IMG/VR virus record: IMGVR_UViG_3300020576_002947
Coordinates: 128,001-192,000 of that record
From: a virus
Lineage: Duplodnaviria > Caudoviricetes
Reading direction: 5' to 3' (one strand)
DNA: 64,000 nucleotides
Below are positions 1 through 49,662 of the stretch, one piece after another. The position numbers and the translations under genes are program-made. A model generated the notes under the pieces. It was not told the DNA's origin, did no database searches, and saw only the letters and a program-made list of their open reading frames with translations. Within the stretch, counting starts at the first letter, position 1. The number at the start of each line of letters is the position of its first letter.

Positions 1-3000
1 TAGTTTCTGGGTGATCATCCCAGCTAAACCATTTAACTTCAGTTAGTATATCTTGATCAAGAGTTTTTAGTTCAGAAGCATTAAAATCTAAGCCAAACTT
101 TGTCTTATCTACTAAGTCGAGAAAAGACTTTTTCTGTCTGTCTGAAAGTAATACTCTAGCCGCCTCTCTTAATGCAGACGCTTTCATACCTCTTTTAAAT
201 AACATGAACATTACAGTTGGCATCACAAGTCTACGCAAGACATAATACGTACTTAGTTTAGTAAGCATTACTAGTGTACTATTAATGATTCTTAGACTTT
301 GTGTTGACCCAGTAGGCATAGCAAGAGCCATCGGAGATACAAAAGTTACCAGTCCATTTTCTAGATCAAATCTATGAATTACTGTTTTGGCTCTAACAGG
401 GCCATACAATCCTGACCTATCATCCTGAATAACAATAATATCTCTTGGCTTAATAGTAGGTTGTCCTGTTAAGGTGATCCAACCAGAGTACATATTAGCT
501 ACTGAGTCCGCTAAAGTAGTTACAAGAGAGTTATGAACTGCAGGGGTTGTAGGTGTATGTGCAATTGTAGAAGCAAATCCAGGAACCCAACTAAATAAGT
601 TAGTAATTCTTTGTTGGATATTACCAAACCCACCACCAATAGCTGTAAGATAGATACCACTATCTACAGTAAGTGTTCTTCTAGAAGATGGTATAATATC
701 ATCGTCTACGCAAACACTGAGAGATCTTTCAATTGAATCTCCTCCAAACCATTGACTATAGGTCTGTATACCAACTGCGTCAGTAAATACTTTACTAGCG
801 TCAGGTTTAATTGAGTTTTGAATCAAGTTTATCCCTGTTTTGGCAATATAGAACTGAGTAAAAGGTTTCCAAGCTAGTGTAGAAGTTAAATACTCAACAT
901 CCTTAAAACGTTCACCTGCAAGAGGTCTACCATCATACTCATAGCCTAATTTCTTAGCCCTGTATTCAGCCTTGTCCTGAGCAGACCAAGTAGGAAGTAT
1001 AAAGTTCTCAAAAAGATGTTTCTGACCAGCTTGATTCATCTGATTAAAAAAGCTTCCTTCATATTTCTTCTCAGCAACTCCTTTCGGATTCCAGATCATC
1101 TCAGCCCACTTTGCAAGATTATGTAACCCTCCAGGAATAGAGAGATCCCAGAAAACCTCTCCTAGTTTTAAAGGCCATAGCGTTTCGCTATCTCTCTCAG
1201 ACTGCTTCTCTAAAGCTTTGGAAACAGCGGAAGCATTCTGTCTTATGTATTTACCATCTTGCCTAGCTAGATCTGGGTCAACAGGGGATATACCTAAATT
1301 CTCATCTGACCATAATCCTACTCGGTTTGCCTTAGCAATATTTTGTGTTGCTATTAGCTCAGCAGGAGTTTTGTCAGTATTCGATCCAGGCCTTGGTTTA
1401 ATGTCAGCGTCTTTCTCTACGTAAGCCCAAGCCATTCCAAGACGAATCATCTCTTCGTTAACATCTAGGTAGGTATTAGAATCAGCATCAAAAGCTTTAA
1501 TTTGTACAAGGAAACGGCCATATGCAGCTTCAAAGCCTACGATATCAACGACTACGTTCTTTCCTTCAATAAGTTTCTTAAGAGTTTTTGTTGACTCGAT
1601 TCCAAAACGCTGACGCTTTTCTGGTGCGTCTACATAGCGAAGTCTTGCACCGTTCATTCCGGTGATACCGAAGTTAATTGTATCACCATCTTTTACAAAG
1701 ATTTTAAGCTGGTCTTTGTTACTTCTCAGAAGTTCAAGTGACTTGGCTACTTTTGCATAACTCTTTGTGCTTTCTTTTGTTAAGAAGTCTTTATCAATAG
1801 CTGCTGCACTAGTACTAAGAAGTTCTGAAGTTTCTTCAGAGACTTCCAAGTTGTCATTAGCTTCATTAACCAGTAACGACTTAATATCTAGTGACTGATT
1901 ACCAACAGCCTTAAGCTCTTCTATTGTAGGAGAAAAGTTTTCAAGTGTTTTAGCTGTATAAGCATAGTGGCAAGGCCACCACCACTTTCCGTAGAACACC
2001 CTACTCTCAGTTCCAAACGATGTAGGACAGCCTACAAAATCGAAAACAGCCCTTCGGCAGACATCAATTACTTTGTGAGATGTAGCTTCATTAACAGATA
2101 CACTAAAATAAGTTTTCTTAGCGTTCCAATCATAAAAAGCGTAGTTATTGAAGAAGTTGTTATCAGGAGTTTGATCTAATGTAGGTGAGGCATCATAAAT
2201 ATTTACTGCAGCTTCAGCAGCATAGTGTCTAGCACCTTCAATATATACATCGCCAAAGTGAGCAATACCGTGGGACATATCCCTAAACTTACCAAAAGGA
2301 TTTAATTTTTCAAGAAAGAGTGACTTAGCACCATCAACCTGGATAATTGATTCAAGTACGATATTAGCAGGAGACTTAGAAATCCCCACCATACCGGTAT
2401 TTCTCCACACCCACCCATTGTTTGTTTGAGTATTTCCAACAGTAATTTGTTTGTTTAGTTCATCTCCATCAGATAGTGCTACAATAGTTACTAAGTCATC
2501 AGACGCTGGAAGCTCAGTAATTGCACCATTAAATACAACTGGCATTGTAGCTGCGTTACTACCATAACCCATTCGAAGATGGATTCTAGCACCAGGTTTA
2601 AGAACAAAGGTGTTGAGATAATTTCTAGCCCAGATCATCTTCATCTCATCATCAAAGTTCTTCATGATGTGACGAGCCCAGACATCACCTAATAGGCCAT
2701 CCCCAAATCCCCATTTCTTAGGATTACTTAGAACGGCTAAGAACTCATTTCTTTGGTCAACAGCCATTTCTTCTAAGAAGATTTGCTCGGCTCTGTAGTT
2801 AGTTAATGATCTGAAGACATTAGACAGGCCAATTGTTAGTACGGATGCAGGAGTCTCAACTGAAGAAACAAGCTCTATAGAGCTTACTGCTGTTCTAGTA
2901 AAGTATTGATCCCAGAGCTTCTCAGTGCCGCCTTTCCAGTAAAAACCTTCGTTGATGATTGCTAAGAAGTAAGCAGGCCATGCACCCTTTAATCTTCCAA

Positions 3001-6000
3001 AAGGAGAATGGTTTCTTAAGTCTACTGTTAATCCATAGATTGCATCCTCTGATTCAGGGAACAGAGCAAGTCTCTGCTTTCCAATCAAGACTGCCTGCTC
3101 TTCTAGACTTAGATCTTTATCTTGAAGATCGCTAAAAACGCTTAGCATGTCTAAACTAGCAAATCTTCGATCTAAACTAATATCCCTAGGCTTACCACTA
3201 GGAAGGTAATCAGTCATTACAGACCTGCTACCAGATTTTGTAGTATGGATTGTATGGTTAGCCATATTACCGCAATCCATAGCAATATATGGATTATACC
3301 CAGAGAAGAAAGGATCTAGTTTTGATGTTTCATAGAAATCAGCTTCGATACCAATAGATCTTACCCACCCTAACCAATGGACATAATAAGTATCAATGGC
3401 GTGTAGAGAATTACCTGCTGACGCAGCTTCTCGAAGATACTTTGTAAAATCATCAAAACTTTTTGCTTCATCTGCTAAAGATAGAAGTTTATCAATCTGG
3501 TCTTTATTAGTAATATAGTCGGCATTAGCTCTAGTTACTCTAAAATGAGTTTCTAGTAGTTTTACTGCTGTTCTTTTATGCTTACTAGAGTTGTATGTAT
3601 GACCAAACACTCGGTATGCATATCTAGGGCCTTTGATATTCAGTTGGTCAGGTTTAACTTCTTTAACAACCCTCTCCAAATCAAGATCACCCCAGCCAGT
3701 ATGATCTAATGCAGGTCCGTGGGCACCTAAATGTGACCTTGAATTAAAGAAGGCAAATCCTACTGAGGGTGGTATGTTGTTTTTCTGTGCATTTGCAATT
3801 AGCTCTCGAAGAGTCTCATCACCATTGGTACGAATCTGGGCAGACCCTCCTTTCCAAGTGTCAGAAACACTCTCTAATTCTTTCGACTCTAGAACCTTTC
3901 TATAAAGAAGATTCTTATCATAAACAGTAAAAGGATACAACTTATCAGCCTTCTCCATCATTCTCCAAGGTGTTACAAATGTACCTGCATCAGCAGGAGG
4001 AGAATGAGGAGTTTTAACGGTCAGAAGTGGCTTAAATTTAGAAATTTTTTCTAAGTGTTCGTAAGGAGAGTGTACTTCATAATTAGAATCAGCCCCTTGA
4101 AATGTCATCGGCTTTCTAAAGGCTGCGTTTTCTCTGTCACCACCAACCTCATCCCACCTACCAAGAATGTTTTCTCCAATATTATCAAGAAAACTTGATT
4201 GTTTCCATTGAAGTAAGAAATTGTACGTTGGGTCTGTTAGATCATGCCATTTATGGTCGCTACTAAGTCGATCTGCAATTCCTTGTGTAACAGCGGTCTT
4301 AATAGCCTTCAATCTAAAAGCGTAACTAAAGAAAATTCTTTCCTCTTCAGTACCTTTACCAAGAGCCTCTAAATCTCCCGGGTCCTCAAAAGGAATTAAC
4401 CTTTTTTCGAATTCTTTAGGAATCTCTCCTTTAAAAATATTACTCTTTTTGAAGATATCATTAATTGGTCGAGTATCAGTCCCTATGCGGTTGAAATCTT
4501 TTAGATCAACCATTTCCCCACTACTAGCCCACCATCCAAGTTCAGCACCCTTCTGATCAATCTCGGTAGCCCCCTGAGAAAGTGCTTCTACTACTTCGGT
4601 AGCTTTTTCGCCAGTAGACGCCATATACAGATTATCACCATATATGTTAGGAAGGTACTGCCCAATATTAGTAATTGAAGCTCCTCTTTGGTCTGCAGGT
4701 ACTAAACTAACTACTTTGTTATCTCCAGAAACAGGTAATTTTTCTGAGATTCTGATTGTAGATATGACTCCTGTCTTTGTGGGGCCATCTTCGTTCTTAA
4801 CTTCCTTAGGAGAGAAAACGTCTCGAGCTCCGTACTGATCAGTAGTAACTTCATCTAAAGTTGACTTAAAGTAATTCTTTTCATAGTAAACATAGAAATC
4901 TGGGTCTACATACCTACCTTGAGTCATTGTACCGTCTAAAGGCCAAGCTGCTATATTTTGTCTAGTAGCAGGAACTTCAAAGTACCTACCGCAGTGATTA
5001 AGAATCTCCTCATCCAGTGTAGACAGAGAGATATCATTTTCATCGGATTGCTCTTGCTCGCCAAACTGGGCTAGTCGGTTAAAAGAAAGAACCCACTGAT
5101 TTAACTGTGTTTTAGTAGGTAAATAAAGGTCAGGATAAACCTCTTCATGCAGTAGTGAATTCTGCAATGACATATAATCAATAGCTTTGAGGTAGGTGGG
5201 AAAAGCGTCTTCTACGCCTCTTGTTTCATCGTTATACTTTAAAGTAGTGTTTGTCTGATTATTGTACGTGTTAAGTGTCTTTAGCCTCTCTGCTTCCTTA
5301 ACCCTTGGATCAAAATCTAAGAAAGTTATTACAAAATCCCAGCTTCCAGGAGCACCGGGAGCATTACTTACTTCAATACCCGCGGGCATAACAAAATTAA
5401 TACCCATTAAGCTAAAAATGGTACCTTTTGCGTGGATATAGGCAGATCCTGGTTTTGACTTATCAAACTCGTGACGATCATCAGGAAGGTCTGTAACCGA
5501 TGAGTCTTTACTCTTTCTACTTATAGCTCTTTCAGCGAATAGATCGTAAAATCTCTGGACTTTTAGCATGGCATCATTACTCATGCAACGCCCTTCAAGG
5601 GTAATTATTTTTGACTTTGTGCCTAAGATCTGATGCTTCGGTAATTGTAAAGCTTCATGAGTAGTCACACTTAGGTTATAGCCGCCTTGGACATTTATCT
5701 TAGTAACAATTACATCTTGATCGCCTGTACTAGATAAATGCAGCCTTACATCATCCACACTAGGTACAAAAAATACATCATCAACTGCTCTAGAAAATGA
5801 AGCTGCTCTGCTATCAAAATAAGCGTTCTCATCTACTGCAACATTATAATGTAGCTTTGTAATACCAGGATCTATTTCAGCAGGAATGATCCTAATAACT
5901 GCCCCAAAGAAGTCTTGTGGGTTGACTATTGCAGCCTCAATAGTCGTTTTCATATTCCTAATTGCTTGTGCTCTAACCTCCTCTTCAGGGTTCTGAAAAT

Positions 6001-7669
6001 TAACAGTCCTTTGTAGCCTCGCATATTCCTTATCTTCAAAGTATTTTGTGATAGCATTTCTATAAGCTGCAGCATCTTGTTTGTTTTGTGTATCTGATTT
6101 TGAAATATCAACGAGAGTATCAAGACTGCTTATCTTTTGATAATATTCATTAGGAACAAGGATGTTAGCGATATCTACACCAACCCCGACCCTATTTCCA
6201 AGATGGTCTGCTAGTGCATAGTCAAAGCCTTCTTTCCAGTAGGTCCAACCCATAACCATACCAGCTAAAGATCCCTTTACTATACTGTCCCAATTAGCTT
6301 TTGAGTTGAATTTTAAAACATAGTATTCGCCTTCAGTATCGAAGCCAGCAGTATCTGATCCTTTCTCATAAGCTGGTAGCCTTTTGATATTGTCACTTGT
6401 AACCTCTCCTTTTCGAGTGACTAAGTTTTGAAGACTTCGAATAGTTTGAGCATCTGATCCTGCTGTAGTGCTTTGTGTATAGTTTATCTCAGAACCTATT
6501 TTAGATACTTGTTCTGGGCCTGGAATAGTTAAAACTATTTCATCTGAGTAGCTATAAGAAGATTTCTTCGTTGTTGCAGCCCAGAATTGATAAATGGGCC
6601 AACAGTACGCATCACTTAGGCACCTTATTTCAGGATTTTTCTTAGCCTTTTCTTCATCACTCTCAAGCAAGCTCTCAGCCCCAGCTAAGGATGCATAAGC
6701 AGACCAGAGAAATGGGTCTACTTGAATATCAAGCTGCATTGCTTCAGGACTACCAGGGACAGTCGATAGTGAATACCCTTTTACAATTACCTCATTATAT
6801 GGAATTGGGTGGGAACTACTATCATCATCCTTGTCAAGCATAGGGAATAAGCCCCCTTCTGTAATTAAGATAGGTGTTAAATTAATTTGCTCAAGTACAG
6901 GCTGAAGAGAGTTTGCTACTTCATGTTTTGAAGGTGCTAGAATAGATATAGTGTATGTTCGGTACGTAGTTCCAGCATGGTTCTTAAAGCCCCCTTCTGT
7001 TCTAATAGAAGGAACTTCCTTAATATAGGATGTTGAAGAACTAGATACTGAAGTAATATTACAGTTTCCTAGAATAGGAGCGTACCCTAACTGAGTTGTA
7101 TTGTGTGGGTATTGATAGGGTTTTGGTGTGTTTAGAAATCCAAAACTATCATCAGGAAGAAAGAGATGGTCGGCCATCTTCTGCCTTTCACGCTTCTTTA
7201 AAAACTCTTCGTCCTTTAGCGGGTCAATAACTTCTTTCTTAGTTTTTGGCTCCGAGTTAGGCTGTGTATTTTCATCAGCTGTAGAAGTGTTAGAAAATTC
7301 TAGGGACTTCTCCATCGGTTTCTTTTTGTTTGAGGTATTTATATTTAGTTTAGAACTAACAATTTTATATGTAGAAAAACTATTAGAAAGAATTGTTGTT
7401 CCTAAGAAACCTAGACCTGGTATCGTAAGCTGAAGCGTTATCGTACCTTCAAAGTTGTGCCTATAGTCTGAGTTTATAAGAACAGTTAGTAAGGAAAGGC
7501 CGTACTCACTCCTGATATGCTCAGCAAACTCTGACCAGAGAACGTAAAAAGATTTTTGTTTTCCTGGATTAGGGCCTCGGTAGTTTACTTTGTCTAGTAT
7601 AAGTGCATACTCTTGACCACCCTTTGTTTCCTTTCTTATAGAGTTTGGGCTTACTACAATATTATCCAT
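1..7669 (-). CDS. Giant baseplate hub-like/tail protein (>2556 aa, 3'-truncated by window edge) with an embedded staphylococcal nuclease domain
   Basis: ATG at 7669 (MDNIVVSPNSIRKE...), 2 nt after the stop of 7672..8400. The same frame is open wherever hand-translated (about 7669-6680, 3840-3570, 1720-1290, 60-2). The track reports no minus-strand ORF here, as expected if no stop occurs before the edge. Hub-like motifs: PGARIHLRMGYGSNAATMPVVFNGAITE (about 2515-2600) and MYSGWITLTGQPTIKPRDIIVIQD...VIHRFDLENGLVTFVSP (about 330-495). Confidence 0.8.
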   Translation of the reverse strand, partial: MDNIVVSPNSIRKETKGGQEYALILDKVNYRGPNPGKQKSFYVLWSEFAEHIRSEYGLSLLTVLINSDYRHNFEGTITLQLTIPGLGFLGTTILSNSFSTYKIVSSKLNINTSNKKKPMEKSLEFSNTSTADENTQPNSEPKTKKEVIDPLKDEEFLKKRERQKMADHLFLPDDSFGFLNTPKPYQYPHNTTQLGYAPILGNCNITSVSSSSTSYIKEVPSIRTEGGFKNHAGTTYRTYTISILAPSKHEVANSLQPVLEQINLTPILITEGGLFPMLDKDDDSSSHPIPYNEVIVKGYSLSTVPGSPEAMQLDIQVDPFLWSAYASLAGAESLLESDEEKAKKNPEIRCLSDAYCWPIYQFWAATTKKSSYSYSDEIVLTIPGPEQVSKIGSEINYTQSTTAGSDAQTIRSLQNLVTRKGEVTSDNIKRLPAYEKGSDTAGFDTEGEYYVLKFNSKANWDSIVKGSLAGMVMGWTYWKEGFDYALADHLGNRVGVGVDIANILVPNEYYQKISSLDTLVDISKSDTQNKQDAAAYRNAITKYFEDKEYARLQRTVNFQNPEEEVRAQAIRNMKTTIEAAIVNPQDFFGAVIRIIPAEIDPGITKLHYNVAVDENAYFDSRAASFSRAVDDVFFVPSVDDVRLHLSSTGDQDVIVTKINVQGGYNLSVTTHEALQLPKHQILGTKSKIITLEGRCMSNDAMLKVQRFYDLFAERAISRKSKDSSVTDLPDDRHEFDKSKPGSAYIHAKGTIFSLMGINFVMPAGIEVSNAPGAPGSWDFVITFLDFDPRVKEAERLKTLNTYNNQTNTTLKYNDETRGVEDAFPTYLKAIDYMSLQNSLLHEEVYPDLYLPTKTQLNQWVLSFNRLAQFGEQEQSDENDISLSTLDEEILNHCGRYFEVPATRQNIAAWPLDGTMTQGRYVDPDFYVYYEKNYFKSTLDEVTTDQYGARDVFSPKEVKNEDGPTKTGVISTIRISEKLPVSGDNKVVSLVPADQRGASITNIGQYLPNIYGDNLYMASTGEKATEVVEALSQGATEIDQKGAELGWWASSGEMVDLKDFNRIGTDTRPINDIFKKSNIFKGEIPKEFEKRLIPFEDPGDLEALGKGTEEERIFFSYAFRLKAIKTAVTQGIADRLSSDHKWHDLTDPTYNFLLQWKQSSFLDNIGENILGRWDEVGGDRENAAFRKPMTFQGADSNYEVHSPYEHLEKISKFKPLLTVKTPHSPPADAGTFVTPWRMMEKADKLYPFTVYDKNLLYRKVLESKELESVSDTWKGGSAQIRTNGDETLRELIANAQKNNIPPSVGFAFFNSRSHLGAHGPALDHTGWGDLDLERVVKEVKPDQLNIKGPRYAYRVFGHTYNSSKHKRTAVKLLETHFRVTRANADYITNKDQIDKLLSLADEAKSFDDFTKYLREAASAGNSLHAIDTYYVHWLGWVRSIGIEADFYETSKLDPFFSGYNPYIAMDCGNMANHTIHTTKSGSRSVMTDYLPSGKPRDISLDRRFASLDMLSVFSDLQDKDLSLEEQAVLIGKQRLALFPESEDAIYGLTVDLRNHSPFGRLKGAWPAYFLAIINEGFYWKGGTEKLWDQYFTRTAVSSIELVSSVETPASVLTIGLSNVFRSLTNYRAEQIFLEEMAVDQRNEFLAVLSNPKKWGFGDGLLGDVWARHIMKNFDDEMKMIWARNYLNTFVLKPGARIHLRMGYGSNAATMPVVFNGAITELPASDDLVTIVALSDGDELNKQITVGNTQTNNGWVWRNTGMVGISKSPANIVLESIIQVDGAKSLFLEKLNPFGKFRDMSHGIAHFGDVYIEGARHYAAEAAVNIYDASPTLDQTPDNNFFNNYAFYDWNAKKTYFSVSVNEATSHKVIDVCRRAVFDFVGCPTSFGTESRVFYGKWWWPCHYAYTAKTLENFSPTIEELKAVGNQSLDIKSLLVNEANDNLEVSEETSELLSTSAAAIDKDFLTKESTKSYAKVAKSLELLRSNKDQLKIFVKDGDTINFGITGMNGARLRYVDAPEKRQRFGIESTKTLKKLIEGKNVVVDIVGFEAAYGRFLVQIKAFDADSNTYLDVNEEMIRLGMAWAYVEKDADIKPRPGSNTDKTPAELIATQNIAKANRVGLWSDENLGISPVDPDLARQDGKYIRQNASAVSKALEKQSERDSETLWPLKLGEVFWDLSIPGGLHNLAKWAEMIWNPKGVAEKKYEGSFFNQMNQAGQKHLFENFILPTWSAQDKAEYRAKKLGYEYDGRPLAGERFKDVEYLTSTLAWKPFTQFYIAKTGINLIQNSIKPDASKVFTDAVGIQTYSQWFGGDSIERSLSVCVDDDIIPSSRRTLTVDSGIYLTAIGGGFGNIQQRITNLFSWVPGFASTIAHTPTTPAVHNSLVTTLADSVANMYSGWITLTGQPTIKPRDIIVIQDDRSGLYGPVRAKTVIHRFDLENGLVTFVSPMALAMPTGSTQSLRIINSTLVMLTKLSTYYVLRRLVMPTVMFMLFKRGMKASALREAARVLLSDRQKKSFLDLVDKTKFGLDFNASELKTLDQDILTEVKWFSWDDHPET

Positions 7670-7671
7670 AT

Positions 7672-8400
7672 TTATCTAAAGGCCTCGGCAAGTCGATTCC
7701 TATCAATCGTAGGTTCGGTTATACCTTTGACTCTTATTAGAGGCCGAGTATCGTTTTTATTATCTTCATTGATTATATGATTTGAGTATTCTTCTGGTGT
7801 CATTGTAGCACCTGCAGCAGAACCCATAAACGTTTGAATATTTCTCGCGTTTCTAATTGACCTTACCTCAACTGCCCTTGCTGCGCCAACTACGGCAAGA
7901 CCTGTCATGATTCTTATGAAAGAGCTTCTAGACAGTCTAAGACCGTCTAATGCAGGAGCAAGAGTTTTCAAAGGACTATTATCAAGAGCTGCTATTAAAT
8001 TTCCTTTCATGTTCTTAATAAAATCTGGGTATGTATTAAGAAACTTATTAGTACTTACTGATATTGCACTTCCGAGTACAAGAGTTGAGATACCTAGAGA
8101 AGCACTAGCAGCTATGGCAACCTCAGGAGGCATACCACCATGCATAGCCTCGCCAACATTAAAGCCTCCTATAGCACCAATAACTCCTCCAACGATAGCA
8201 CTTCTTCCGCCAAAGATACCACCAGCTAACATACCTACTGATGCACCCAAACCAGCCATCTCAGGACCCTTAGTTCTAGAATTAAGCTGATCATTTACTA
8301 CTCTGCTATCCTTAACAGCATAGTAAGTAAGCAGAGAGCCTACAACTAAACCTATACCTAACTCAGGGGAGGGCCTAACTCTTAAAAGTCCTTTTATCAT
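7672..8400 (-). CDS. Gly/Ala-rich multi-hydrophobic-helix protein, probable virion/ejection protein
   Basis: 242 aa with glycine-zipper segments (GLGASVGMLAGGIFGG, VGGVIGAIGG); tightly coupled between two giant virion genes. Confidence 0.55.
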   Translation of the reverse strand: MIKGLLRVRPSPELGIGLVVGSLLTYYAVKDSRVVNDQLNSRTKGPEMAGLGASVGMLAGGIFGGRSAIVGGVIGAIGGFNVGEAMHGGMPPEVAIAASASLGISTLVLGSAISVSTNKFLNTYPDFIKNMKGNLIAALDNSPLKTLAPALDGLRLSRSSFIRIMTGLAVVGAARAVEVRSIRNARNIQTFMGSAAGATMTPEEYSNHIINEDNKNDTRPLIRVKGITEPTIDRNRLAEAFR

Positions 8401-8402
8401 TT

Positions 8403-13763: not shown

Positions 13764-13785
13764 TATAGCTATAACCTAAAATAAA

Positions 13786-13811
13786 TTAGAGCCTATTTTA
13801 TTAGGCTCTAA
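13786..13811 (-). terminator. Rho-independent terminator-like hairpin
   Basis: Perfect 10-bp stem TTAGAGCCTA/TAGGCTCTAA, 6-nt loop, followed by TTTATTTT on the minus strand; downstream of 13855..14202. Confidence 0.65.
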
Positions 13812-13854
13812 CTGTTTTTTATCATGAAATAATCACCACTACTTAAACATCTAG

Positions 13855-14202: not shown

Positions 14203-14203
14203 T

Positions 14204-15307: not shown

Positions 15308-15336
15308 GATATATTTTTAACTCTCAATTAGTAATG

Positions 15337-30807: not shown

Positions 30808-30809
30808 TT

Positions 30810-32389: not shown

Positions 32390-32412
32390 TGAGATTATCA
32401 CACGTAATTAAC

Positions 32413-33654: not shown

Positions 33655-33693
33655 CTTAGCTATTATCCTATTCCTTTTTATTATTCTCCAGTG

Positions 33694-35049: not shown

Positions 35050-35082
35050 TTGTTATTGCTGTCTCCGATGTAATGCTAGAGG

Positions 35083-39005: not shown

Positions 39006-40107
39006 TAATTATCCTTTGTAAAGTCCTGGCTTTGACGCTACCTAAACGAGCTTCTTGCTCTGATTCAAGCTTTGCTTCTTTTGCAGCTAAGTTTTTCCTG
39101 ATCTGTAAACCTAAATCTGCTGCTGCGTCACTTATTAGTTGTCTAACAAATGGCAGAGTTCTAGATTCAGATCCAGCTATATGAGAAGCAAGACCGTCTA
39201 GAAAGTCGTCTACCTCATCTCCAATACTAGAAGCCATTTTAACTAGCTGAAGAGTCATTACTTCTTCTAAATAGCCTTGAAGAGTATTACCATAAGAGAC
39301 TGTAAAAACTTGTTTAGTTGGGGTCCAAACATCTGTCTCATTCTTTAAGTAGTTTTGGAGTAGATATTGAAGAGAGTGTGGAGATCCTTCTACAGCGACT
39401 GGTATGTAGTAAGATATAAAGTCCTTTAACTCCTCAGCAATAGGGTTCTCATATTCTTTCCTAAGCCCTACTGACCATTCTAAGATATTAGTTAGCTCAG
39501 TTTTAGCCTTGCCAAGTAAGTAAGAAAGCATTCTATTATTCTGAACCTCTTTACCTGGAATCACTTTGCCTGCTTTATCACGTTCAGATACAAGTACTAC
39601 TTTACCTGCCTTATCTTTAACTACTATAGGCTCTTTTGGCTTTAGAATATCATCTATAGCTTTATTAAATAAAACATCTAAAACTTCTGCTCTTTGTAGA
39701 TGCAAAAACACAGTCTGAAGAAACGACTCTGAGTGCCTATCAGACTTAGCTACCTCTTTCTCTATATTATCGATCTCAACTGCACTAGCTGTAAAGGATG
39801 GATAAGATACTGAGTCGTCTAAAATTAGCTCAATAGGAACGTAGTTTTGTTCTACAAGCTCAGCGTATCTAGGAAAATAAGGACTCTCAGCGCCAGCTTT
39901 GATATACTTAATAGTATCGTTTAAATCTGCTCTAACTCGTGCTGCTAACTCTTTAACATCATCTAGCTCAGCAGGAATTTTGGTATACTGAGTGTCATCC
40001 TCAACAGCAAGTTTGTCGATATTGAGGGTACTTGGTTCTACACCAGTAGACCCTGCTTCAACTTTCTTCTTTACATCAAATACCTTAAATAGGTCCGAAA
40101 TCCTCAC
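38983..40107 (-). CDS. Hypothetical protein (374 aa, helical), possibly structural
   Basis: Long ORF overlapping both neighbours, between terL and portal. Confidence 0.6.
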   Translation of the reverse strand: MRISDLFKVFDVKKKVEAGSTGVEPSTLNIDKLAVEDDTQYTKIPAELDDVKELAARVRADLNDTIKYIKAGAESPYFPRYAELVEQNYVPIELILDDSVSYPSFTASAVEIDNIEKEVAKSDRHSESFLQTVFLHLQRAEVLDVLFNKAIDDILKPKEPIVVKDKAGKVVLVSERDKAGKVIPGKEVQNNRMLSYLLGKAKTELTNILEWSVGLRKEYENPIAEELKDFISYYIPVAVEGSPHSLQYLLQNYLKNETDVWTPTKQVFTVSYGNTLQGYLEEVMTLQLVKMASSIGDEVDDFLDGLASHIAGSESRTLPFVRQLISDAAADLGLQIRKNLAAKEAKLESEQEARLGSVKARTLQRIINVLENSF

Positions 40108-42508: not shown

Positions 42509-42511
42509 AAA

Positions 42512-42949
42512 TTAGCGTGAGTGTAGGGTTCTAGCAAAAACTCGAGCTTGGTTTCCATCAAAAGCACCGTAGGCTGATTCCATTTGCTTCTGTGCGTAAG
42601 TGTATTGGTTATAAGCTGATTGTGAAGCTTGAGACCCTTGAGAAAAAGGAACTGATAAAGTAGACTTATCAGTAATTGATGTACTAATTGCCCCGACTAG
42701 GCTTTGAGCTAGTTCAGGAGCGTAAAAAGCAGCGTTAACTAAAAGACTATAACCAAGACCTGCAACAAAGTTTTTACCTGCAGCTACCTGGGCTAAACCA
42801 TCTACAATAGATGACGCTACAGCTTTTCTCTTCTGCTCGGGGTTTTCATAATGACCACTTGCAGCCATGAAAACCCCGGTAAGAGACATACCTAGGTTCA
42901 TCATCGCACCCTTGCTCCCACCAAGGGTTGTTAGTAACTTAGTATTCAT
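42512..42949 (-). CDS. Small Gly/Ala-rich hydrophobic protein, possible virion/ejection protein
   Basis: 145 aa; hydrophobic segments (FVAGLGYSLLVNAAF). Confidence 0.55.
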   Translation of the reverse strand: MNTKLLTTLGGSKGAMMNLGMSLTGVFMAASGHYENPEQKRKAVASSIVDGLAQVAAGKNFVAGLGYSLLVNAAFYAPELAQSLVGAISTSITDKSTLSVPFSQGSQASQSAYNQYTYAQKQMESAYGAFDGNQARVFARTLHSR

Positions 42950-42966
42950 TTTTGAGTATCAGTTCG

Positions 42967-43311
42967 TTAAAAGAACTTAAGAGCCTGCTCGCCTGCGTTT
43001 AACAACGCCTTATTAACAGAACGGCTAAAATCACCAGCAGGACCAGTAGGTACACCTTTGCCGAGATTTTGAACCATTTTACCAATTCCGCTATTAATAC
43101 CTTTTCCTAGCTCTCCAGCTTTACCACCAAGAATCATTGAGGCAGCGTAAGTAGACAAGCCAAAAGCACCTACGTTAAGGGCTGCTGTAGTCATATCCCC
43201 ATAACGCATCGAATCGTATGCTGATTTAGCATGACTAAGTGCAAACATACCTGCGGTACCACCTACACCATATCTTGCAATTGGGTTTGAAGAAAGAAAT
43301 CCACCTGCCAT
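42967..43311 (-). CDS. Small Gly/Ala-rich hydrophobic protein
   Basis: 114 aa; YGVGGTAGMFAL, ALNVGAFGLSTYAASMILGG. Confidence 0.55.
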   Translation of the reverse strand: MAGGFLSSNPIARYGVGGTAGMFALSHAKSAYDSMRYGDMTTAALNVGAFGLSTYAASMILGGKAGELGKGINSGIGKMVQNLGKGVPTGPAGDFSRSVNKALLNAGEQALKFF

Positions 43312-43318
43312 TTAGTTA

Positions 43319-43753
43319 TTAACTCCCTGAAAGAATATTATATCTTTCATCACTCATACTAGAGCCCATAATTCCTCTAGCATACGCCGGACCTGCACCC
43401 ATATCATTAACATGTCTGAGATCCCCAGAACCATCATAATAAGATGAGGGCGGCGGCGCTTTAGCAGGCAGAGCAGCAGTAGCAGCTACATTTAAACCAA
43501 ATGAAGCTCCTCCGTAAAGACCCATACCTGTTGTTATCCAGCCATTCAAACCAAATCTTTTAGTCTCATCTTTTAAGTTAGGTTTAAAAGCATTAGGAAA
43601 AGCCCCTTCTAGTCTGCCAGAGATACCTTTAAAGGTACTGCTATTTCCTAGGGCTGAAGTAGCTGTTAAAGTAGCCTTTTTTATAAAGGAGTTTGACCCA
43701 ATAGCGCCTCCCACTTGGTCAATAGATTGTAGAATAGTACCTAGTAAACTCAT
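43319..43753 (-). CDS. Small Gly/Ala-rich hydrophobic protein
   Basis: 144 aa; GWITTGMGLYGGASFGLNVAATAAL; ATGA overlap with the upstream gene. Confidence 0.55.
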   Translation of the reverse strand: MSLLGTILQSIDQVGGAIGSNSFIKKATLTATSALGNSSTFKGISGRLEGAFPNAFKPNLKDETKRFGLNGWITTGMGLYGGASFGLNVAATAALPAKAPPPSSYYDGSGDLRHVNDMGAGPAYARGIMGSSMSDERYNILSGS

Positions 43754-44511
43754 TTTACCTCAACGTCGATTACAACATTAGTAGGATCATCCTCTTTTGA
43801 GGAGTTCCTTAACTCTTTTAGAGCCACACCTTTAGGTCTAGCAAACAAGTCAGACAACATTTTAAACTGTCCTGCTTGAACAGCAAGGTTCGCTTTATCT
43901 TTTCTAGTAGCTACAAGCTGAGAAAGAGCATTTTGTAGTGACTTTTCTAGTAGTGCTCTATGTTTGATAATTTCATTAGCCCTTCTGTCAGTAATAGCGT
44001 CACCTTTAGCACTAACACCTACAACAGACTCACCAGCAACTCCATAAACAGCCAACTCTCTATCAATTCTGTTGATTAGCACAGTCTGTTTAACAATATG
44101 AAGGATTTGAAGTATGTCTGAAGAACTATCAGGTCTAACATCATGCTCTCTTACAAAGTTAGCTAGCCATATAGCAGCTTCTTTTACTTCTAGACGGCAG
44201 GGCTCCCCGAAAAGGGCATCAATAGCTACTTGTCTCTGTTGAGTACTATGCTTATACTTCTTTTTAATAGCACTCATAATAGGGCATACAGCAAAGTAGG
44301 GACATTCATGAGTTTTACAAGTTAAAAACCCACTATAAAATCCAGGAAGCTTTCGTTCGAAGATAGTTTCATCCCAAAAAGGTATTTCTCCTATTACTTC
44401 TAGCATTGCTTCGACGAGAGACTTACTAAAGTCGTCTACTTCTAGAAAAGGGGCAGTCTCTTCAAGACTTAAAAAACTAGTAGTCTTAGTTTGAATTGGG
44501 AAGTCACTCAT
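43750..44511 (-). CDS. Putative terminase small subunit (Cys cluster plus helical oligomerisation region)
   Basis: CKTHECPYFAVCP...PCRLE, then helix-hairpin-helix ending LSQLVATRKDK; upstream of terL. Confidence 0.45.
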   Translation of the reverse strand: MSDFPIQTKTTSFLSLEETAPFLEVDDFSKSLVEAMLEVIGEIPFWDETIFERKLPGFYSGFLTCKTHECPYFAVCPIMSAIKKKYKHSTQQRQVAIDALFGEPCRLEVKEAAIWLANFVREHDVRPDSSSDILQILHIVKQTVLINRIDRELAVYGVAGESVVGVSAKGDAITDRRANEIIKHRALLEKSLQNALSQLVATRKDKANLAVQAGQFKMLSDLFARPKGVALKELRNSSKEDDPTNVVIDVEVK

Positions 44512-44920
44512 TAAAAAGATTATTGAACTCAGTCAGTGAATGATCATTTCTTCTCATTCTTATTACTAGTACTTGCACTGTTTCACCATTATTTTGAACA
44601 TTAAATATGCTTTTATAACCATTTACACAATATTTCCAATCCTGTGTAAAAAGCTGGTCTGCGTAAGTATACTCATAACTGATCATATGAGAAGTAATTA
44701 CGTTTGTAGGCTCTAATGTAGGTGTATCTGAATCCATCTCTTCTTGTGGAACAACAAGAAAGTTTATATAATTATTTAATGAGAGTTTTAAATCAAATTC
44801 AGGTAAAAACTCAGGAATAATTAAAGTAAAGTACTCCGGTGACACTTCTACGATTCCGGCTGAACTAGGCGGAATATAGAAAGTAACATCTTTATTTAAT
44901 GAAGTGTTCTGTCGAGACAT
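44504..44920 (-). CDS. Hypothetical protein
   Basis: Track ORF 44504..44938 starts at a TTG inside an inverted repeat; the ATG at 44920 (MSRQN) is the more likely start. Confidence 0.6.
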   Translation of the reverse strand: MSRQNTSLNKDVTFYIPPSSAGIVEVSPEYFTLIIPEFLPEFDLKLSLNNYINFLVVPQEEMDSDTPTLEPTNVITSHMISYEYTYADQLFTQDWKYCVNGYKSIFNVQNNGETVQVLVIRMRRNDHSLTEFNNLFNE

Positions 44921-44926
44921 CTTTAC

Positions 44927-45003
44927 TACTAATGTCAAAAATAGTTTGACACTAGTATATTAGAGGCCTAGTCCTTGCACTCTAAGTTATATATAGAGTG
45001 TAA
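44927..45003. promoter_or_regulatory. Divergent control region with two inverted repeats
   Basis: IR1: TACTAATGTCAAA-5nt-TTTGACACTAGTA (44927-44957, 12/13 match). IR2: TTGCACTCTA-9nt-TAGAGTGTAA (44975-45003, 9/10 plus G.T), abutting the ATG at 45004. Confidence 0.55.
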
Positions 45004-48000
45004 ATGTTTCCAAAACGGTCTAATGATACAGATGATTATAAGGGTCTAAGTAAGAAACAAGGCTCAATTAAAGGATTGGAGTCTATTAGATTAGATTTCA
45101 AACTAAAAGAGTTTTGGGTAACACAGAAGACTAAGGATGCTATGGCTAAAGACGTAGCTAACTCCTTAAACACCTTAAGTGGGTCAACAATTCACTATAA
45201 AACTCTTCCTGATAACTCTCGTCCTCAATGGGTTGATACCCTTAGCAATTTAAGTGATAGTCTTAATGGATTAGCTAGATTTAGTACCTCCCAAATTATG
45301 GGTGCTTTAGATAATTCAATTAATGCAACTAAAGATATGATATTAGAGGCTTCAAAAGTTTATCTAATGTTTAATCCTCAAATGCACAAACGAAACGGAG
45401 AACTAACTTTTACAGGGCAGGTAATGGGTAGGATTTATGATGTACACAAAGCATCATTCCAAACGGAAGCTACTAAAAATGCTCTTGAAGCAGCTTGGAA
45501 TTTAATGAATCCTAAGAGTGGTAAGTACGAGATGGTTAGTTTCCAAGCTAAAGTTCTTACTGTAGAAAACCCAGCACTTATAAGTGAAATGTTGTATGGT
45601 ACGAAAGGTGGTCTGAAGGATATGCCAGACTTTTCTGACTTACTAGGTACTATCGTTAAGGGAAGAGACGGTCAGCTTCTTTTTGTCACTGACGCTAGAG
45701 TATTTGCTCAGCTAGCTATTGATAATGATGGAGACGTAATTCAATTATCAGTACTAAAGAAGGTAGGGGAGTCTATCACAACATCAGCAGAGTTTGCATT
45801 CTACCAAAAATCCCCTGGTTTAAGAACAAATGGAGGCGTTAGACTATTAAACGGTCTTCTATCCCAACAATTGAGTGGTGCAGCAATAGATGCAGCAGTT
45901 ACTGACCCAGTTACAAAAAGACAACTAGAACTAAAGAGGCTTAAAGCAACAACCGACTTAACCCTTTATGCCCGCCAGAGATTCTTTGGTGCCCAATTAG
46001 ATGCTTTTGGATTAAATACTACAAATACCCCTGAAAGTCCTTATAAGGGGACAATGGATTATCGTTACAGCAAAAGTGATCTACTAAAAACTGGTGCTGG
46101 TTTAATTACTACTGGGGCCAACGGTAGATCACAATTTCCTGATATAAAAGAGATATTTGCTTTTGAGGAAGGTGGTGTAAAATTTATTGGAGATGACGCC
46201 TTATCCCCTCAAGCACTACCTTCAGGGGTAAGATCTATTTTAAGAGGAGCCTCCAGAGGAAAAGAAGTTGCCTTTTGGGAAGGTTACCGAGGAAAAGACC
46301 TATCAAACAAAATGTATGCTCAAGAGTATGCTTTTGGTGGTTATGCTAAAAAGCAGGCCATGAAAGAACTAATTCCACAAGTGCGTAGCAACAAACAGGT
46401 GGGTCTTTTAACTAATATGGTTTGGGTTAAGGAAGTCTCTGAAATCATGCAAAGCATGACAGATAAAGGGGATTTAAATAACATGATTGATCAACTGGAT
46501 ACTGCGTTTCTAAAGGCGGTAAGTGATCATGTTAGTTCAGGAGACATAGATCCTAAAGCATTAGCAAAGATTAGAGAATCTGCAGGAATGCTTGCTACGA
46601 TTACCTCAAAGTTAGGCTTAGGAGACAGACGCTTTAAAGTACTAGAGCTACAAGCACTAAAAGCAGGTATTGGAGGAAAGGCACAGACAATCGGAGCGGA
46701 CGCAAGTCTTGTTTGGGGAGAAGAGGCACAAAGAGTTTTTACTGAATCAGCCAGTTTGTACCTAACTAAATCTAAATATTTTTCTGGTATGAGCGTAACC
46801 CAGTTATCAGAAGTACTAGAAGATATGATGACGGGTAACTCTCGATACTTAAAGTCAGTAGGACCTGATTTCATTACTCAAATGACTAACCCATTTGGTA
46901 GCGTTCTATCTAGCTTTGAATCTGGCGGTGACGGAGCTGTAACTAGAGAAGTAAAACCAAGAGAATCTAAAATTAGGACCGATTATTCTAAAGCAGCTCT
47001 TGAGAAGAGAGCCCAAAGTAGACCTCTTGCTCATGTACTAGATCGTAATGGAGCAAAGAAAACCAAAGGAGCTTTAGATTATTTAATTGAAGCGGGTATA
47101 CTAGAAGTACATAGATTTGATATGAGCGCAGAGACTATAGGTGCTGAAAATTTAGGCCAACTACAGAGAATGGCTGGGCAGAATCCTGTTTCTTCAGTTA
47201 CAATTGTACAAAGGGACGCTGCGGGTGGTTATAGAAGCTGGGGAAGTAATCCTGGAATTCAAGCTACAGATACAGCAGCAAGACAAGCACAATTACTAGA
47301 AAACTCAGTATGGAGACCTACAGTAATGCTAGCGAATGCAAATGGTCTCGCTTTTGATAATACTACCCCACCTGAAGATATAATACCACTATTTCTTGAC
47401 CCCTTAGAAGCAGTAAGAAAAGCAACAGAGAATGTTTCAGGTATAATTGGTCTCGAAACTCAACAAAAAGGTGGTAAAGGAGTAAAAACACACTATAGAT
47501 TTAATATAGGTGATTTTAGTGGTGCAGCTATTAATAACGATGGTATGCCGGAAGCTAGTGGTATTACTCTTAAATCATTCAAAGACGATGAAAAGCTTCT
47601 TGAGAACGCCTTAAGAGGGTACTCCTCAAAGAAAGATTTCGATAATGGTGATATAAAGAAGATTCTTAATCTTGATGTTGAAAGCGAGATTAATAGAAAG
47701 GGTTTAATGGACTACGCAAAGAATCTATTAAACAGGGCCTTAAATGAGAACGACAAAGAAGCAGAGATTAAATTTAAAAGACTAGTCACTGGTGGGTTTA
47801 TGAGGTCTTATGCAGGACAAAGTTTTGAAAGAAAATTCAATGCAGCTGTTGCATCAGTAGCAGGAGAACTAGCACACCAAACGACACTAACTGTTCAACC
47901 AGGTGGAGGAGTAGGTTTAGGTATAAATCAAAATTCTGATGTATGGAGCAGAGGTTCTATTACTATAACAAACGAGTATGGTGATATTGTTGATGAACGA

Positions 48001-49662
48001 GACTTAGCTGATGGTATTATTATAGCACAGAAGTGGTTAAACTTAAGAATAGGTAGTAAAAAATCAGGACCACTAAATGCTGCGGCAAGAGCATTCCTCT
48101 ACGATCCGACCAAACCATCGTCTGTTGCAGATAAAAGAGGTAGTAAAATATCTAGCCAGGCTATTGCTGGCGTAGAAATAAAAGCTACGGTAGCTTACTT
48201 TATGCCAGATACTTTTCTTCAAGAACAGGGTGATGATCTTACTAAAAAGATTTTCAAAGGTAACGCAGATGAGTGGTTTGAGCACTTTTATTTAACACTG
48301 GCTGAAGACAAATCAGGTACTTACGAAGATCTATCCAATAAACAGAAGTTTCAGGGACAGGGCGAGCTTTTTCTTACCCCTGCAGGTGCAGCTAAAGTTA
48401 AAGCTCAACAAAAACTTAAAGCTGGAAAACTGATTGAGTACGAAGGAATACCACCTATGAAAGATCAGTTAAGTAGAAAAGCCCAAATGTTTTACGGCAA
48501 ATGGTATTATGTTCTTAGCGAAGAAGAGTTAGTTTCTGACGCTAAACTTGTAAATACTGCTGGCTGGTTAAAAGCTATGCCAATAGGAATTACAACTCAG
48601 TATACCATGAATCCTACTGGTGGCGGTGCAAAGCAAAACATTGATATGATGATAAGTCTTGGTGAGGTTTTTGCTAAATCCACAGGAATTAATCAACTAC
48701 TTATCCACCATGCCAATGAGCTAGGATTAACGTCAGAAGAAGTTAAAACCAAAATGGAAAAACATAGGGCTAACTTCCAAAAAGCTGTTAGCACTGGTGA
48801 TGATAAAGCCTTAAAAGGTCATATTACTGCAATGCTTGAGGACTTTGGATTAATGAAAGAAGAGGTAGAAGAAATAGATGAACAAGGGGTAGTAAGAAAA
48901 GCATCAGCTTGGGTTTTTGGCAAGCGTGATGAACGGGGTAATGCTGCGTTAGCGGATACCACAGTAATCTCACTTACAAATGTTGCAGAACACCTAGTAG
49001 CAAGAGAAACTTGGGATGAGAACTTGCAACGCTTAGTTATAAAAGGTGCTGAGTCAACCCAAGTTATGAAAGGAGGTTTAATGAGCCAGGATGTAATCAA
49101 TAAAATCTTTGGTGATGGTGCTGTTAAAGCATTTGACCTTTTCTCAGTACTTGGACGTGATGGTGAGGAAGGTTTAATAAAGAGCTTCGCAAGAGAGCTT
49201 AATCCTGGTGTGGTAACACTTACTGATAATATGATTGCACAGGCACGGCAAACACTGCAGGTTGGGTTTGTTGCAGTTGCTCAGCAGGAGTACACGGGAG
49301 CTGCGGAAAAGGCTACTGAGCACCTAAGATCGCAGCTAGGCCTATTAATGGATGCTAGACTTGAAATTCTTGATGCTATTAGTGGGGGTCAGATTATACA
49401 GGGCTTAGGTAGTATCAAAAAAGAAACTCACCAGCTACAAGCAATAGCCCATAGCATAGGCCTAGCAAGTCAAGCACAAAAACTTGGTACTATAGGTAAA
49501 GAATTAGAGGGCAAATCTGAAAACATGCTCCACTATCTAATGAAGAGTACTCCTGCTAATGGTAAGCTAGCAATAGCTATGGCCGCCACAGCAGCAACTG
49601 CTACAGCCTTTGCGATGAGAGGAAGAGTACAGGCTAAAAGAGAAGAAGCTCGTACCAGGTAG
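45004..49662 (+). CDS. Putative single-chain two-barrel (DPBB) RNA polymerase-like giant protein (1552 aa)
   Basis: beta'-like: VLTVENPAL and FAQLAIDNDGDVIQLSV (D240/D242/D244). beta-like: KATVAYFMP, DAKLVNTAGWLKAM (K1181/K1190), NIDMMISLGEVFAKSTGINQLLIHH. Ala-rich hydrophobic C-terminal helix. Confidence 0.6.
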   Translation: MFPKRSNDTDDYKGLSKKQGSIKGLESIRLDFKLKEFWVTQKTKDAMAKDVANSLNTLSGSTIHYKTLPDNSRPQWVDTLSNLSDSLNGLARFSTSQIMGALDNSINATKDMILEASKVYLMFNPQMHKRNGELTFTGQVMGRIYDVHKASFQTEATKNALEAAWNLMNPKSGKYEMVSFQAKVLTVENPALISEMLYGTKGGLKDMPDFSDLLGTIVKGRDGQLLFVTDARVFAQLAIDNDGDVIQLSVLKKVGESITTSAEFAFYQKSPGLRTNGGVRLLNGLLSQQLSGAAIDAAVTDPVTKRQLELKRLKATTDLTLYARQRFFGAQLDAFGLNTTNTPESPYKGTMDYRYSKSDLLKTGAGLITTGANGRSQFPDIKEIFAFEEGGVKFIGDDALSPQALPSGVRSILRGASRGKEVAFWEGYRGKDLSNKMYAQEYAFGGYAKKQAMKELIPQVRSNKQVGLLTNMVWVKEVSEIMQSMTDKGDLNNMIDQLDTAFLKAVSDHVSSGDIDPKALAKIRESAGMLATITSKLGLGDRRFKVLELQALKAGIGGKAQTIGADASLVWGEEAQRVFTESASLYLTKSKYFSGMSVTQLSEVLEDMMTGNSRYLKSVGPDFITQMTNPFGSVLSSFESGGDGAVTREVKPRESKIRTDYSKAALEKRAQSRPLAHVLDRNGAKKTKGALDYLIEAGILEVHRFDMSAETIGAENLGQLQRMAGQNPVSSVTIVQRDAAGGYRSWGSNPGIQATDTAARQAQLLENSVWRPTVMLANANGLAFDNTTPPEDIIPLFLDPLEAVRKATENVSGIIGLETQQKGGKGVKTHYRFNIGDFSGAAINNDGMPEASGITLKSFKDDEKLLENALRGYSSKKDFDNGDIKKILNLDVESEINRKGLMDYAKNLLNRALNENDKEAEIKFKRLVTGGFMRSYAGQSFERKFNAAVASVAGELAHQTTLTVQPGGGVGLGINQNSDVWSRGSITITNEYGDIVDERDLADGIIIAQKWLNLRIGSKKSGPLNAAARAFLYDPTKPSSVADKRGSKISSQAIAGVEIKATVAYFMPDTFLQEQGDDLTKKIFKGNADEWFEHFYLTLAEDKSGTYEDLSNKQKFQGQGELFLTPAGAAKVKAQQKLKAGKLIEYEGIPPMKDQLSRKAQMFYGKWYYVLSEEELVSDAKLVNTAGWLKAMPIGITTQYTMNPTGGGAKQNIDMMISLGEVFAKSTGINQLLIHHANELGLTSEEVKTKMEKHRANFQKAVSTGDDKALKGHITAMLEDFGLMKEEVEEIDEQGVVRKASAWVFGKRDERGNAALADTTVISLTNVAEHLVARETWDENLQRLVIKGAESTQVMKGGLMSQDVINKIFGDGAVKAFDLFSVLGRDGEEGLIKSFARELNPGVVTLTDNMIAQARQTLQVGFVAVAQQEYTGAAEKATEHLRSQLGLLMDARLEILDAISGGQIIQGLGSIKKETHQLQAIAHSIGLASQAQKLGTIGKELEGKSENMLHYLMKSTPANGKLAIAMAATAATATAFAMRGRVQAKREEARTR

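Follow-up and report, generated by a model that had tools for sequence, protein, structure and literature searches.

We examined a 64,000-nucleotide window (bases 128001-192000) of the IMG/VR record IMGVR_UViG_3300020576_002947, which is 239,691 bp long and rated 94% complete. An initial annotation had proposed that four giant proteins in the morphogenesis cluster of this phage form a virion-delivered transcription and nuclease system. The open reading frames (ORFs) of all four were found, the one at the left end running past the window start. As judged from its genes, the phage is a jumbo myovirus and a distant relative of Bacillus phage 0305phi8-36, and its three consecutive minus-strand giants are quite likely the conserved tail-core and baseplate-hub trio of the 0305phi8-36-like jumbo myoviruses. 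Tail delivery of nucleic-acid enzymes fits this lineage better than it fits the phage studied here, in which the nuclease folds of giants 1 and 2 are dead or dying and the tail module has no polymerase signature. The trio and its domains are as follows; residue numbers are amino acids (aa).

15337-21747, minus: giant 1, gp145 homologue of 2136 aa, first of the three tail giants (blastp, tblastn, IMG/VR loci)
17020-17568, minus: predicted PD-(D/E)XK fold of the Cas4, lambda-exonuclease and RecB type, aa 1394-1576 of giant 1 (AlphaFold2 model with predicted local distance difference test (pLDDT) 70-88, Foldseek, VIA)
16480-16845, minus: predicted SNase-like OB fold, aa 1635-1756 of giant 1 (VIA, Foldseek, alignment)
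16141-16380, minus: Ala/Gly-rich hydrophobic helical hairpin, aa about 1790-1869 of giant 1 (hydropathy)
8403-13763, minus: giant 2, the "middle giant" of 1786 aa, at the gp146 position (synteny), with a C-terminal hydrophobic helix and no DxDGD
10698-11564, minus: candidate diverged DEDDh-exonuclease-like domain, aa 734-1022 of giant 2 (motifs, hhalign)
1-7669, minus: giant 3, the baseplate-hub giant, first 2556 aa of 3257 (gp147 homologue)
1946-3061, minus: conserved hub core, aa 1537-1908, common to gp147-like proteins
1304-1645, minus: SNase domain, aa 2009-2122, inserted in the hub (Pfam PF00565)

The tail trio and its nuclease folds

The three giants (15337-21747, 8403-13763 and <1-7669) lie downstream of the packaging, capsid, sheath and tube genes, which were located as follows.

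40085-42508, minus: large terminase, 807 aa (PHROG scan)
36917-38539, minus: portal (PHROG scan)
32413-33654, minus: major capsid protein (PHROG scan)
26284-27993, minus: tail sheath (PHROG sheath families, E 1e-26; tblastn to relatives; synteny anchor)
25482-26243, minus: tail tube, a tube-like protein (PHROG; tblastn to relatives; synteny anchor)
24804-25418, minus: tube paralogue (synteny anchor)
21695-23128, minus: two small ORFs of 247 and 229 aa, at the position of the two-gene tail chaperone of the lineage

The order terminase, portal, capsid, sheath, tube, chaperones and three giants is common to 0305phi8-36, Moorella phage MTATph1, Bacillus phage WH1 and KLEB27-3, and the annotated records of these phages list a sheath paralogue, sheath, tube, tube paralogue, two chaperone-like genes, three giants and baseplate genes. 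The two ORFs at the chaperone position gave no sequence match and were assigned by position alone. Scanning IMG/VR with an alignment of the gp145 family gave 35 loci, with contigs as long as 239 kb; nearly every locus shows a gp145-like ORF with the second giant directly after it and then the third. Collinear homology and gene order in 4 cultured phages and the 35 IMG/VR loci place giants 1 and 3 in the gp145 and gp147 families, respectively, of the 0305phi8-36-like tail giants. The giants are not paralogous to one another in all-against-all blastp.

According to the notes of the database record, virion mass spectrometry of 0305phi8-36 detected gp145 and gp146, and the WH1 and KLEB27-3 counterparts of both are annotated as virion or structural proteins. 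Taken together, annotated virion proteins include the homologues of two of the tail giants and, for the remaining one, the protein at the same position. Three of the four giants belong to the tail trio; the fourth, a protein of 1552 aa encoded on the opposite strand, lies outside the tail module.

Giant 1 is, by blastp, a homologue of gp145 (E 7e-28, three collinear segments), which mass spectrometry identified as a virion protein in 0305phi8-36; matches were found in 6 phage records and in the 35 IMG/VR loci, and family searches (Pfam, PHROG and others) returned none. We modelled aa 960-2136 with AlphaFold2 from an alignment of 22 sequences (21 of them IMG/VR homologues). The mean pLDDT was 59.9, with values of 70-89 over model residues 450-1090. 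For model residues 435-617, Foldseek (E 2e-4) and an independent VIA search concur on PD-(D/E)XK, the VIA matches being LHK-Exo (Z 13.5; 155 aa, root-mean-square deviation (rmsd) 3.3), Cas4 SSO0001 (Z 13.4) and lambda exonuclease (Z 11.8), and the alpha-beta-beta-beta-alpha-beta core of the fold is present in the model at aa 1394-1576. The domain occurs in 8 of the 22 family members in the alignment. Seven relatives retain G-x-x-D-A, (V/I)-D-(I/F)-K or I-E-I-K, and Q-x-N-x-Y; giant 1 of this phage keeps GTVD and has VVKIV at the (D/E)xK position, so that the catalytic D...(D/E)-x-K is absent and the predicted domain is catalytically degenerate. Intact D...D/E-x-K...Q-x-N-x-Y was seen in the gp145-like ORFs of loci L172, L173, L174, L175, L178, L186 and L193, so that an active PD-(D/E)XK nuclease may be part of a tail giant in certain members of the lineage.

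The second fold of giant 1 (model residues 676-797) resembles Tudor-SN (VIA Z 9.3 for 2wac and 9.0 for 3bdl) and staphylococcal nuclease (Z 8.1 for 1sta; 103 aa, rmsd 3.3), with a Foldseek probability of 1.0 and no Pfam match. This OB fold is present in nearly all gp145-family members and the SNase catalytic residues in none; giant 1 reads TGEGH for DGDT, KVAGIEWES for RL.GID.PE and FGV for YGR. The helical hairpin that follows resembles membrane-protein hairpins in the model (Z about 6, VIA). These results agree with the initial reading of 15337-21747 as a carrier of degenerate PD-(D/E)XK and SNase-like folds.

The middle giant stands in the tape-measure position after the tail chaperones, one gene removed, as in 0305phi8-36, whose gp146 was given a tape-measure role mainly from tail length (PMC2147016). 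Homology searches leave it an orphan save for one 85%-identical relative, and it has no match in Pfam (E up to 10), PHROG or PDB. A DEDDh exonuclease had been proposed in it, and part of that proposal survives. ExoI can be read as LDIES in YLDIES (D768, E770) and ExoIII as AHDDVAD (H988, D993). When the domain was compared by hhalign with a 22-sequence profile of the exonuclease domain of the relatives' middle giants (P 0.01, probability 4%), LDIES fell on ExoI and GPNGNRFAF on the relatives' G-x-N-x-x-x-F-D of ExoII, in register. The ExoII Asp would then be Ala and is probably lost, and the hidden Markov model (HMM) of the relatives' domain misses giant 2. In ADFGIL, offered earlier as an alternative ExoII, the Asp is out of register. 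The domain is, on balance, a probable strongly diverged and likely inactive DEDDh-like remnant.

The losses in giants 1 and 2 could also mean that the nuclease-like folds are leftovers and that both giants are purely structural, serving as tape measure, tube plug or membrane channel. In agreement with this, catalytic residues are gone from the PD-(D/E)XK and OB folds of giant 1 and probably from ExoII of giant 2, and most gp145-family members lack the PD-(D/E)XK domain altogether. We nevertheless consider it unlikely, since the SNase-like OB fold is retained in nearly all gp145-family members across about 23% identity and relatives retain intact D...DxK...QxNxY and DEDDh motifs, which speaks for selection, within the lineage, on the ability to bind or cleave nucleic acids.

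The third giant is, by homology, a gp27-like hub of the gp147 family, the "hyperplastic" T4 gp27 / P2 gpD type. Its full gene spans genome bases 125896-135669 (3257 aa) and extends 2105 bases past the window start. It matches gp147 of 0305phi8-36 (blastp E 1e-23, collinear over 4 segments), phrog_20474 (E 2e-84) and, by tblastn, hub or structural proteins of 6 cultured phages. The SNase domain that the initial annotation placed here is clear: PF00565 matches with E 7e-13 (49.5 bits against a cut-off of 21), phmmer links it to a thermonuclease (E 8e-6), and in that alignment DGDT, aRL.yVDaPE (RL..VD.PE) and YGR are retained. The Ca2+ ligands and the catalytic Arg and Glu of SNase (D21, R35, D40, E43 and R87) have their counterparts kept in the hub domain. 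The domain looks intact and apparently active, the sole nuclease here to do so. The nucleolytic processing proposed for the system is accordingly plausible for the hub SNase alone, two of the three nuclease folds of this phage being without catalytic residues.

An SNase domain occurs in 2 of 5 hub homologues, and the rest carry NlpC/P60, M23 or CHAP. Hardies et al. (2007), who described this "hyperplastic" nature of gp147, saw its cell-wall-degrading domains as exchangeable and found that the hub homologue of BtI1, a prophage-like relative, bears a staphylococcal-nuclease domain instead (PMC2147016). The hub SNase is thus a cargo swap on a known scaffold, which holds a peptidoglycan hydrolase in relatives, and was already seen in 2007.

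Further genes lie between and near the giants.

14204-15307, minus: calcineurin-like metallophosphoesterase of the Mre11/SbcD-like class, 367 aa (PF00149, E 4e-8; phrog_221)
7672-8400, minus: 242-aa Gly/Ala-rich protein with 3-4 hydrophobic segments (hydropathy)
42512-42949, 42967-43311 and 43319-43753: small Gly/Ala-rich proteins (hydropathy)

The metallophosphoesterase gene, which separates giant 1 from giant 2 within the tail module, has no counterpart in the relatives' loci. The 242-aa protein, between the middle giant and the hub, has no family match and no counterpart in relatives. Hydropathy scans agree with the initial report of C-terminal Ala/Gly-rich hydrophobic helices in the giants and of four small Gly/Ala-rich proteins nearby. 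In the relatives, mobile elements were seen in the tail modules: a transposase lies between the MTATph1 middle giant and hub (L169:24650-26137), and the gp145-like gene of KLEB27-3 is interrupted by an inserted gene and falls into two parts (L171:20396-21492).

Exonuclease and polymerase signatures in the middle giants of relatives

In most of the lineage, the middle giant appears to join a DEDDh-like domain to a beta'-type RNA-polymerase catalytic signature. The MTATph1 protein has an RNase_T Pfam match (24.2 bits) with DLET, NVVGFD and H-x4-D in its sequence, and blastp links this exonuclease-like domain to KLEB27-3 (E 4e-8) and to gp146 (E 7e-10). An iterated HMM then found a DEDDh-like domain of about 380 aa in 25 middle giants (E 1e-20 to 1e-118). 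The domain is usually N-terminal, and the beta'-type signature follows 1400-1900 residues further on.

The signature itself was recognised in several ways. PF00623 gave weak matches (E 0.015 and 0.09) in WH1 (aa 1941-2013) and KLEB27-3 (aa 1877-1944), exactly at the NADFDGD region of the profile, where the two proteins read G-L-Y-G-F-x-N-R-Y-P-T-I-N ... K-A-D-(H/Y)-D-G-D. A two-sequence profile of this region falls on RPB1 412-464 in a PDB search (E 0.9). Across the IMG/VR loci, D-x-D-G-D is present in about 20 of the ORFs that follow the gp145-like gene and in 0 gp145-like ORFs or hub cores. In an alignment, R-[YF]-P-[TS] stands at a fixed distance before D-x-D-G-D in at least 17 distinct middle giants; gp146 of 0305phi8-36 itself has no D-x-D-G-D. 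The initial annotation had raised the question of whether the exonuclease and polymerase halves are fused in relatives, and for the relatives' own domains they are, with the DEDDh-like domain in 25 proteins and the signature in at least 17 of the middle giants. These observations suggest that the lineage has a tail-module virion RNA polymerase in contractile-tail jumbo phages. The loci of the combined middle giant are L172-L206 (IMG/VR), L170:22670-30217 and L171:23550-30854.

First-round transcription by the tail system had been proposed for the present phage as well. This finds no footing in the window, as the middle giant here has no DxDGD polymerase signature and the 1552-aa protein could not be linked to any polymerase or to the polymerase region of the relatives.

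The 1552-aa protein and other polymerase candidates

45004-49662, plus: 1552-aa orphan protein, flanked by the packaging genes and the gene of a 3499-aa fibre-like protein

The fourth giant had been called a two-barrel RNA polymerase. What was found is a conserved DNDGD loop, no family or profile match and a structural model of pLDDT 31. The family has three members among 1.8 to 5.8 billion proteins, namely the 1552-aa protein, P0007 (88% identity) and P0008 (26% identity, 1328 aa). The searches were word-indexed, exhaustive with HMMER over 1.8 billion representatives, and by protein scan of IMG/VR; degenerate DNA patterns for I-D-x-D-G-D-x-I-Q were also run on IMG/VR and metagenomes, and P0007 and P0008 were the only homologues overall. 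Conservation falls into two blocks, aa 34-283 (A-Q-x-A-I-D-x-D-G-D-x-I-Q-L) and aa 1029-1305. The DNDGD at aa 240-244 (bases 45721-45735) is invariant in the three members as DNDGD or DSDGD. Polymerase identity, which would rest on this one loop, is unproven and in our judgement doubtful.

One reading of these data is that all four giants are co-injected virion proteins and that the 1552-aa protein is a two-barrel RNA polymerase of beta'-then-beta order, its module having moved from the middle giant to a gene of its own. Several features are consistent with it. The block around the DNDGD is conserved at 26% identity (AQ.AID.DGD.IQL.V.K) and is preceded by a P-x-L some 50 residues before the loop, the second block starts K-R-x-x-K-(I/V)-S-S-Q, and beta strands flank the loop in the low-confidence model (AlphaFold2 of aa 130-1329 from 3 sequences, mean pLDDT 30.9, unusable). 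The middle giant here lacks the DxDGD of most relatives, so that a polymerase module is "missing" from the tail, and the 1552-aa protein ends in an Ala-rich hydrophobic helix (aa 1520-1540), as the tail giants do. On the barrel HMM of the lineage it scores E 0.26, from the loop alone, while the bona fide YonO-like gp99 of 0305phi8-36 does no better (E 0.33); this test cannot discriminate.

The rest of the evidence speaks against such an enzyme, which we regard as rather unlikely. No match to the 1552-aa protein was obtained in Pfam, PHROG, PDB (sequence or profile) or the ESM atlas, and hhalign detected no similarity to gp99, to the relatives' middle giants or to an 800-aa ORF. Paralogy of its C-terminus with the 800-aa ORF, considered separately, found no support in hhalign or all-against-all blastp. 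Where WH1 and KLEB27-3 have NRYPT, gp99 has RSP and the 368-aa ORF described below has VRYPNL, an R-x-P about 33-45 residues before the loop, the 1552-aa family has E-N-P-A-L or K-D-P-R-L, 50 residues upstream and without the Arg. In single-chain two-barrel polymerases the beta-type barrel is N-terminal to the beta'-type barrel (PMC10770324); with the loop at aa 240 there is no room upstream, so the barrel order would be reversed relative to those enzymes.

The gene lies outside the tail module on the strand opposite to the late genes, separated from the minus-strand packaging-side genes by a short divergent intergenic region (44921-45003), and P0008 is likewise a plus-strand gene among minus-strand small genes, so that the inverted orientation is kept in a distant relative. 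The initial annotation had expected the four giants to co-occur in relatives. In a search of contigs from five relatives, only one of them rated complete, the 1552-aa protein had no homologue, so that joint occurrence of four giants is not conserved there. D-x-D-G-D is, moreover, a common Ca2+-binding loop, and four were seen in the proteome of this phage against about one expected by chance.

The same facts may instead describe a tail-anchored membrane protein of another function, for example an early or middle protein at work in the cell membrane, in which DxDGD would be a metal-binding loop with no link to transcription, the transcription enzyme of the phage being a small split pair of ORFs at genome bases 42825-45513. 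To this reading we give roughly an even chance. The orientation opposite to the late genes and the conserved C-terminal hydrophobic helix, which is followed by basic residues, are in line with it. So is the first ORF of the pair, which lies outside the window (genome 42825-43931, L004:3825-4931; 368 aa), reads in full VRYPNL...(44 aa)...GDADGD and is the best own-genome match of the lineage barrel HMM (E 0.003). Its neighbour encodes 457 aa (genome 44140-45513, L004:5140-6513). The pair has no Pfam or PHROG match and may be a very small split two-barrel polymerase that is not part of the virion. Against the membrane-protein reading, positive evidence for another function of the 1552-aa protein is lacking, and its two-block conservation is compatible with a two-domain enzyme. 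The canonical polymerase Pfam families (Rpb1_2, Rpb2_6 and T7-type) were undetected genome-wide, a result that is uninformative because the T7-type control was silent too.

A further possibility, which we hold to be unlikely, connects the two halves of the story: the lineage would eject through its tail a fusion of DEDDh exonuclease and two-barrel RNA polymerase, which would have been dismantled in this phage, leaving a dead exonuclease remnant in the middle giant and a polymerase transferred to the membrane-anchored 1552-aa protein, with a permuted beta'-then-beta order unlike that of known polymerases. The question of greatest interest is a possible replacement of the lost tail polymerase by the 1552-aa protein.

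Other genes of the record add to this setting. A stand-alone 200-aa ORF outside the window (genome 88172-88774) has an H-N-I-I-A-F-D ExoII-like motif and resembles an ordinary DEDDh exonuclease; it is the top own-genome match of our first exonuclease HMM, at a non-significant level. The large terminase (40085-42508) has an 88%-identical homologue on a Logan contig with a precomputed intein-splicing Pfam match and probably contains an intein; inteins are also present in the ribonucleotide reductase and the family-A DNA polymerase elsewhere in the genome. Bases 51643-62142 encode the 3499-aa Gly/Ser/Thr-rich fibre-like protein, which has long internal duplications and to which a shorter or split protein (1432 aa plus more) corresponds in the 88% relative.

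Precedents and meaning for the lineage

Known virion polymerases are capsid-packed (N4-like, crAss-like and phiKZ-like), with one tape-measure fusion, that of P23-45. The N4-like polymerases (T7-like fold) and the crAss-like ones (two-barrel, gp66 of phi14:2) are, as the initial annotation envisaged for this phage, giant, packaged and ejected to transcribe early genes. They differ in being capsid-internal cargo of podoviruses and not tail-module proteins, and we detected no similarity between them and any protein of the window. The YonO-like enzymes (SPbeta YonO and 0305phi8-36 gp99) are single chains with a DxDGD loop and are encoded in the same lineage. In gp99, R-S-P...D-T-D-G-D is placed centrally and comes after the other barrel, whereas the 1552-aa protein has its loop at aa 240, no Arg and no profile similarity.

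The nearest described precedent for the relatives' middle giant is gp96 of Thermus phage P23-45, a virion RNA polymerase with two barrels fused to the tape measure (Chaban et al. 2024, PMC10770324). Both are giants in the tape-measure position with a DxDGD polymerase loop and hydrophobic membrane segments, and gp96 offers a mechanism in which transcription is coupled to DNA entry. P23-45 is a siphovirus and its polymerase is N-terminal, while the relatives considered here are myoviruses with the signature far downstream of a DEDDh-like domain; the middle giant of the window differs from gp96 in having no DxDGD. A review of jumbo phages names only the YonO-like gp99 (PMC7824862), and our literature searches returned no description, for the 0305phi8-36 group, of a tail-giant exonuclease/polymerase combination or of nucleic-acid enzyme folds in all three tail giants. 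The initial annotation had known of no system with this combination. Its elements do have precedents, in the SNase hub of 2007 (PMC2147016) and the tape-measure-fused virion polymerase of 2024 (PMC10770324). Of its four fold assignments, two hold, one is weak and one is unproven.

Compared with the 0305phi8-36 group (0305phi8-36, WH1, Edson, KLEB27-3 and MTATph1), the phage has the same gene order from terminase to baseplate, a giant 1 like gp145, a giant 3 like gp147, and a hub with exchangeable enzymatic domains. The differences are considerable. Identity is only about 21-27%, and the middle giant cannot be recognised from its sequence. Giant 1 bears an additional PD-(D/E)XK domain, a dead one, and the row of giants is interrupted by a metallophosphoesterase and two small genes. 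The hub has 3257 aa as compared to about 1900-2330 aa in relatives, and its SNase is in the middle of the protein, not N-terminal.

If the trio works as a delivery apparatus, contraction of the sheath would carry the hub, with its Ca2+-dependent nuclease, to the surface of the cell or to the periplasm-equivalent. The lumen of the tube would store giants 1 and 2, which on expulsion would put their hydrophobic helices into the membrane and form a DNA conduit; their dead or dying nuclease folds might keep hold of the DNA end or guide it. The middle giant of relatives, once ejected, would also start transcription.

Several points weigh against this picture. The giants of this phage are known here from their genes. 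Giant 2 has no significant similarity to the middle giant of any relative, and its orthology is argued from position and the hhalign alignment at P 0.01. Just 8 of the 22 aligned sequences back the PD-(D/E)XK part of the giant 1 model. For the relatives, polymerase identity is drawn from a signature motif and sub-threshold profile matches, not from a fold, and the search covered the beta'-type signature alone. Ejection through the tube and membrane insertion are proposed by analogy.

Virion-borne enzymes decide the first seconds of infection. Our results indicate that a widespread jumbo-myovirus lineage (35 IMG/VR loci together with Bacillus and Moorella phages) keeps nucleic-acid enzyme folds in all three tail giants. 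At the level of the lineage, these are a Cas4-like nuclease and an SNase-like OB fold in giant 1, a DEDDh-like domain and a polymerase signature in giant 2, and sometimes an SNase in the hub. If this holds true, tail-delivered transcription would extend to contractile-tail jumbo phages and would be joined by exonuclease and nuclease partners, with possible roles in DNA-end processing, host DNA attack or counter-defence.

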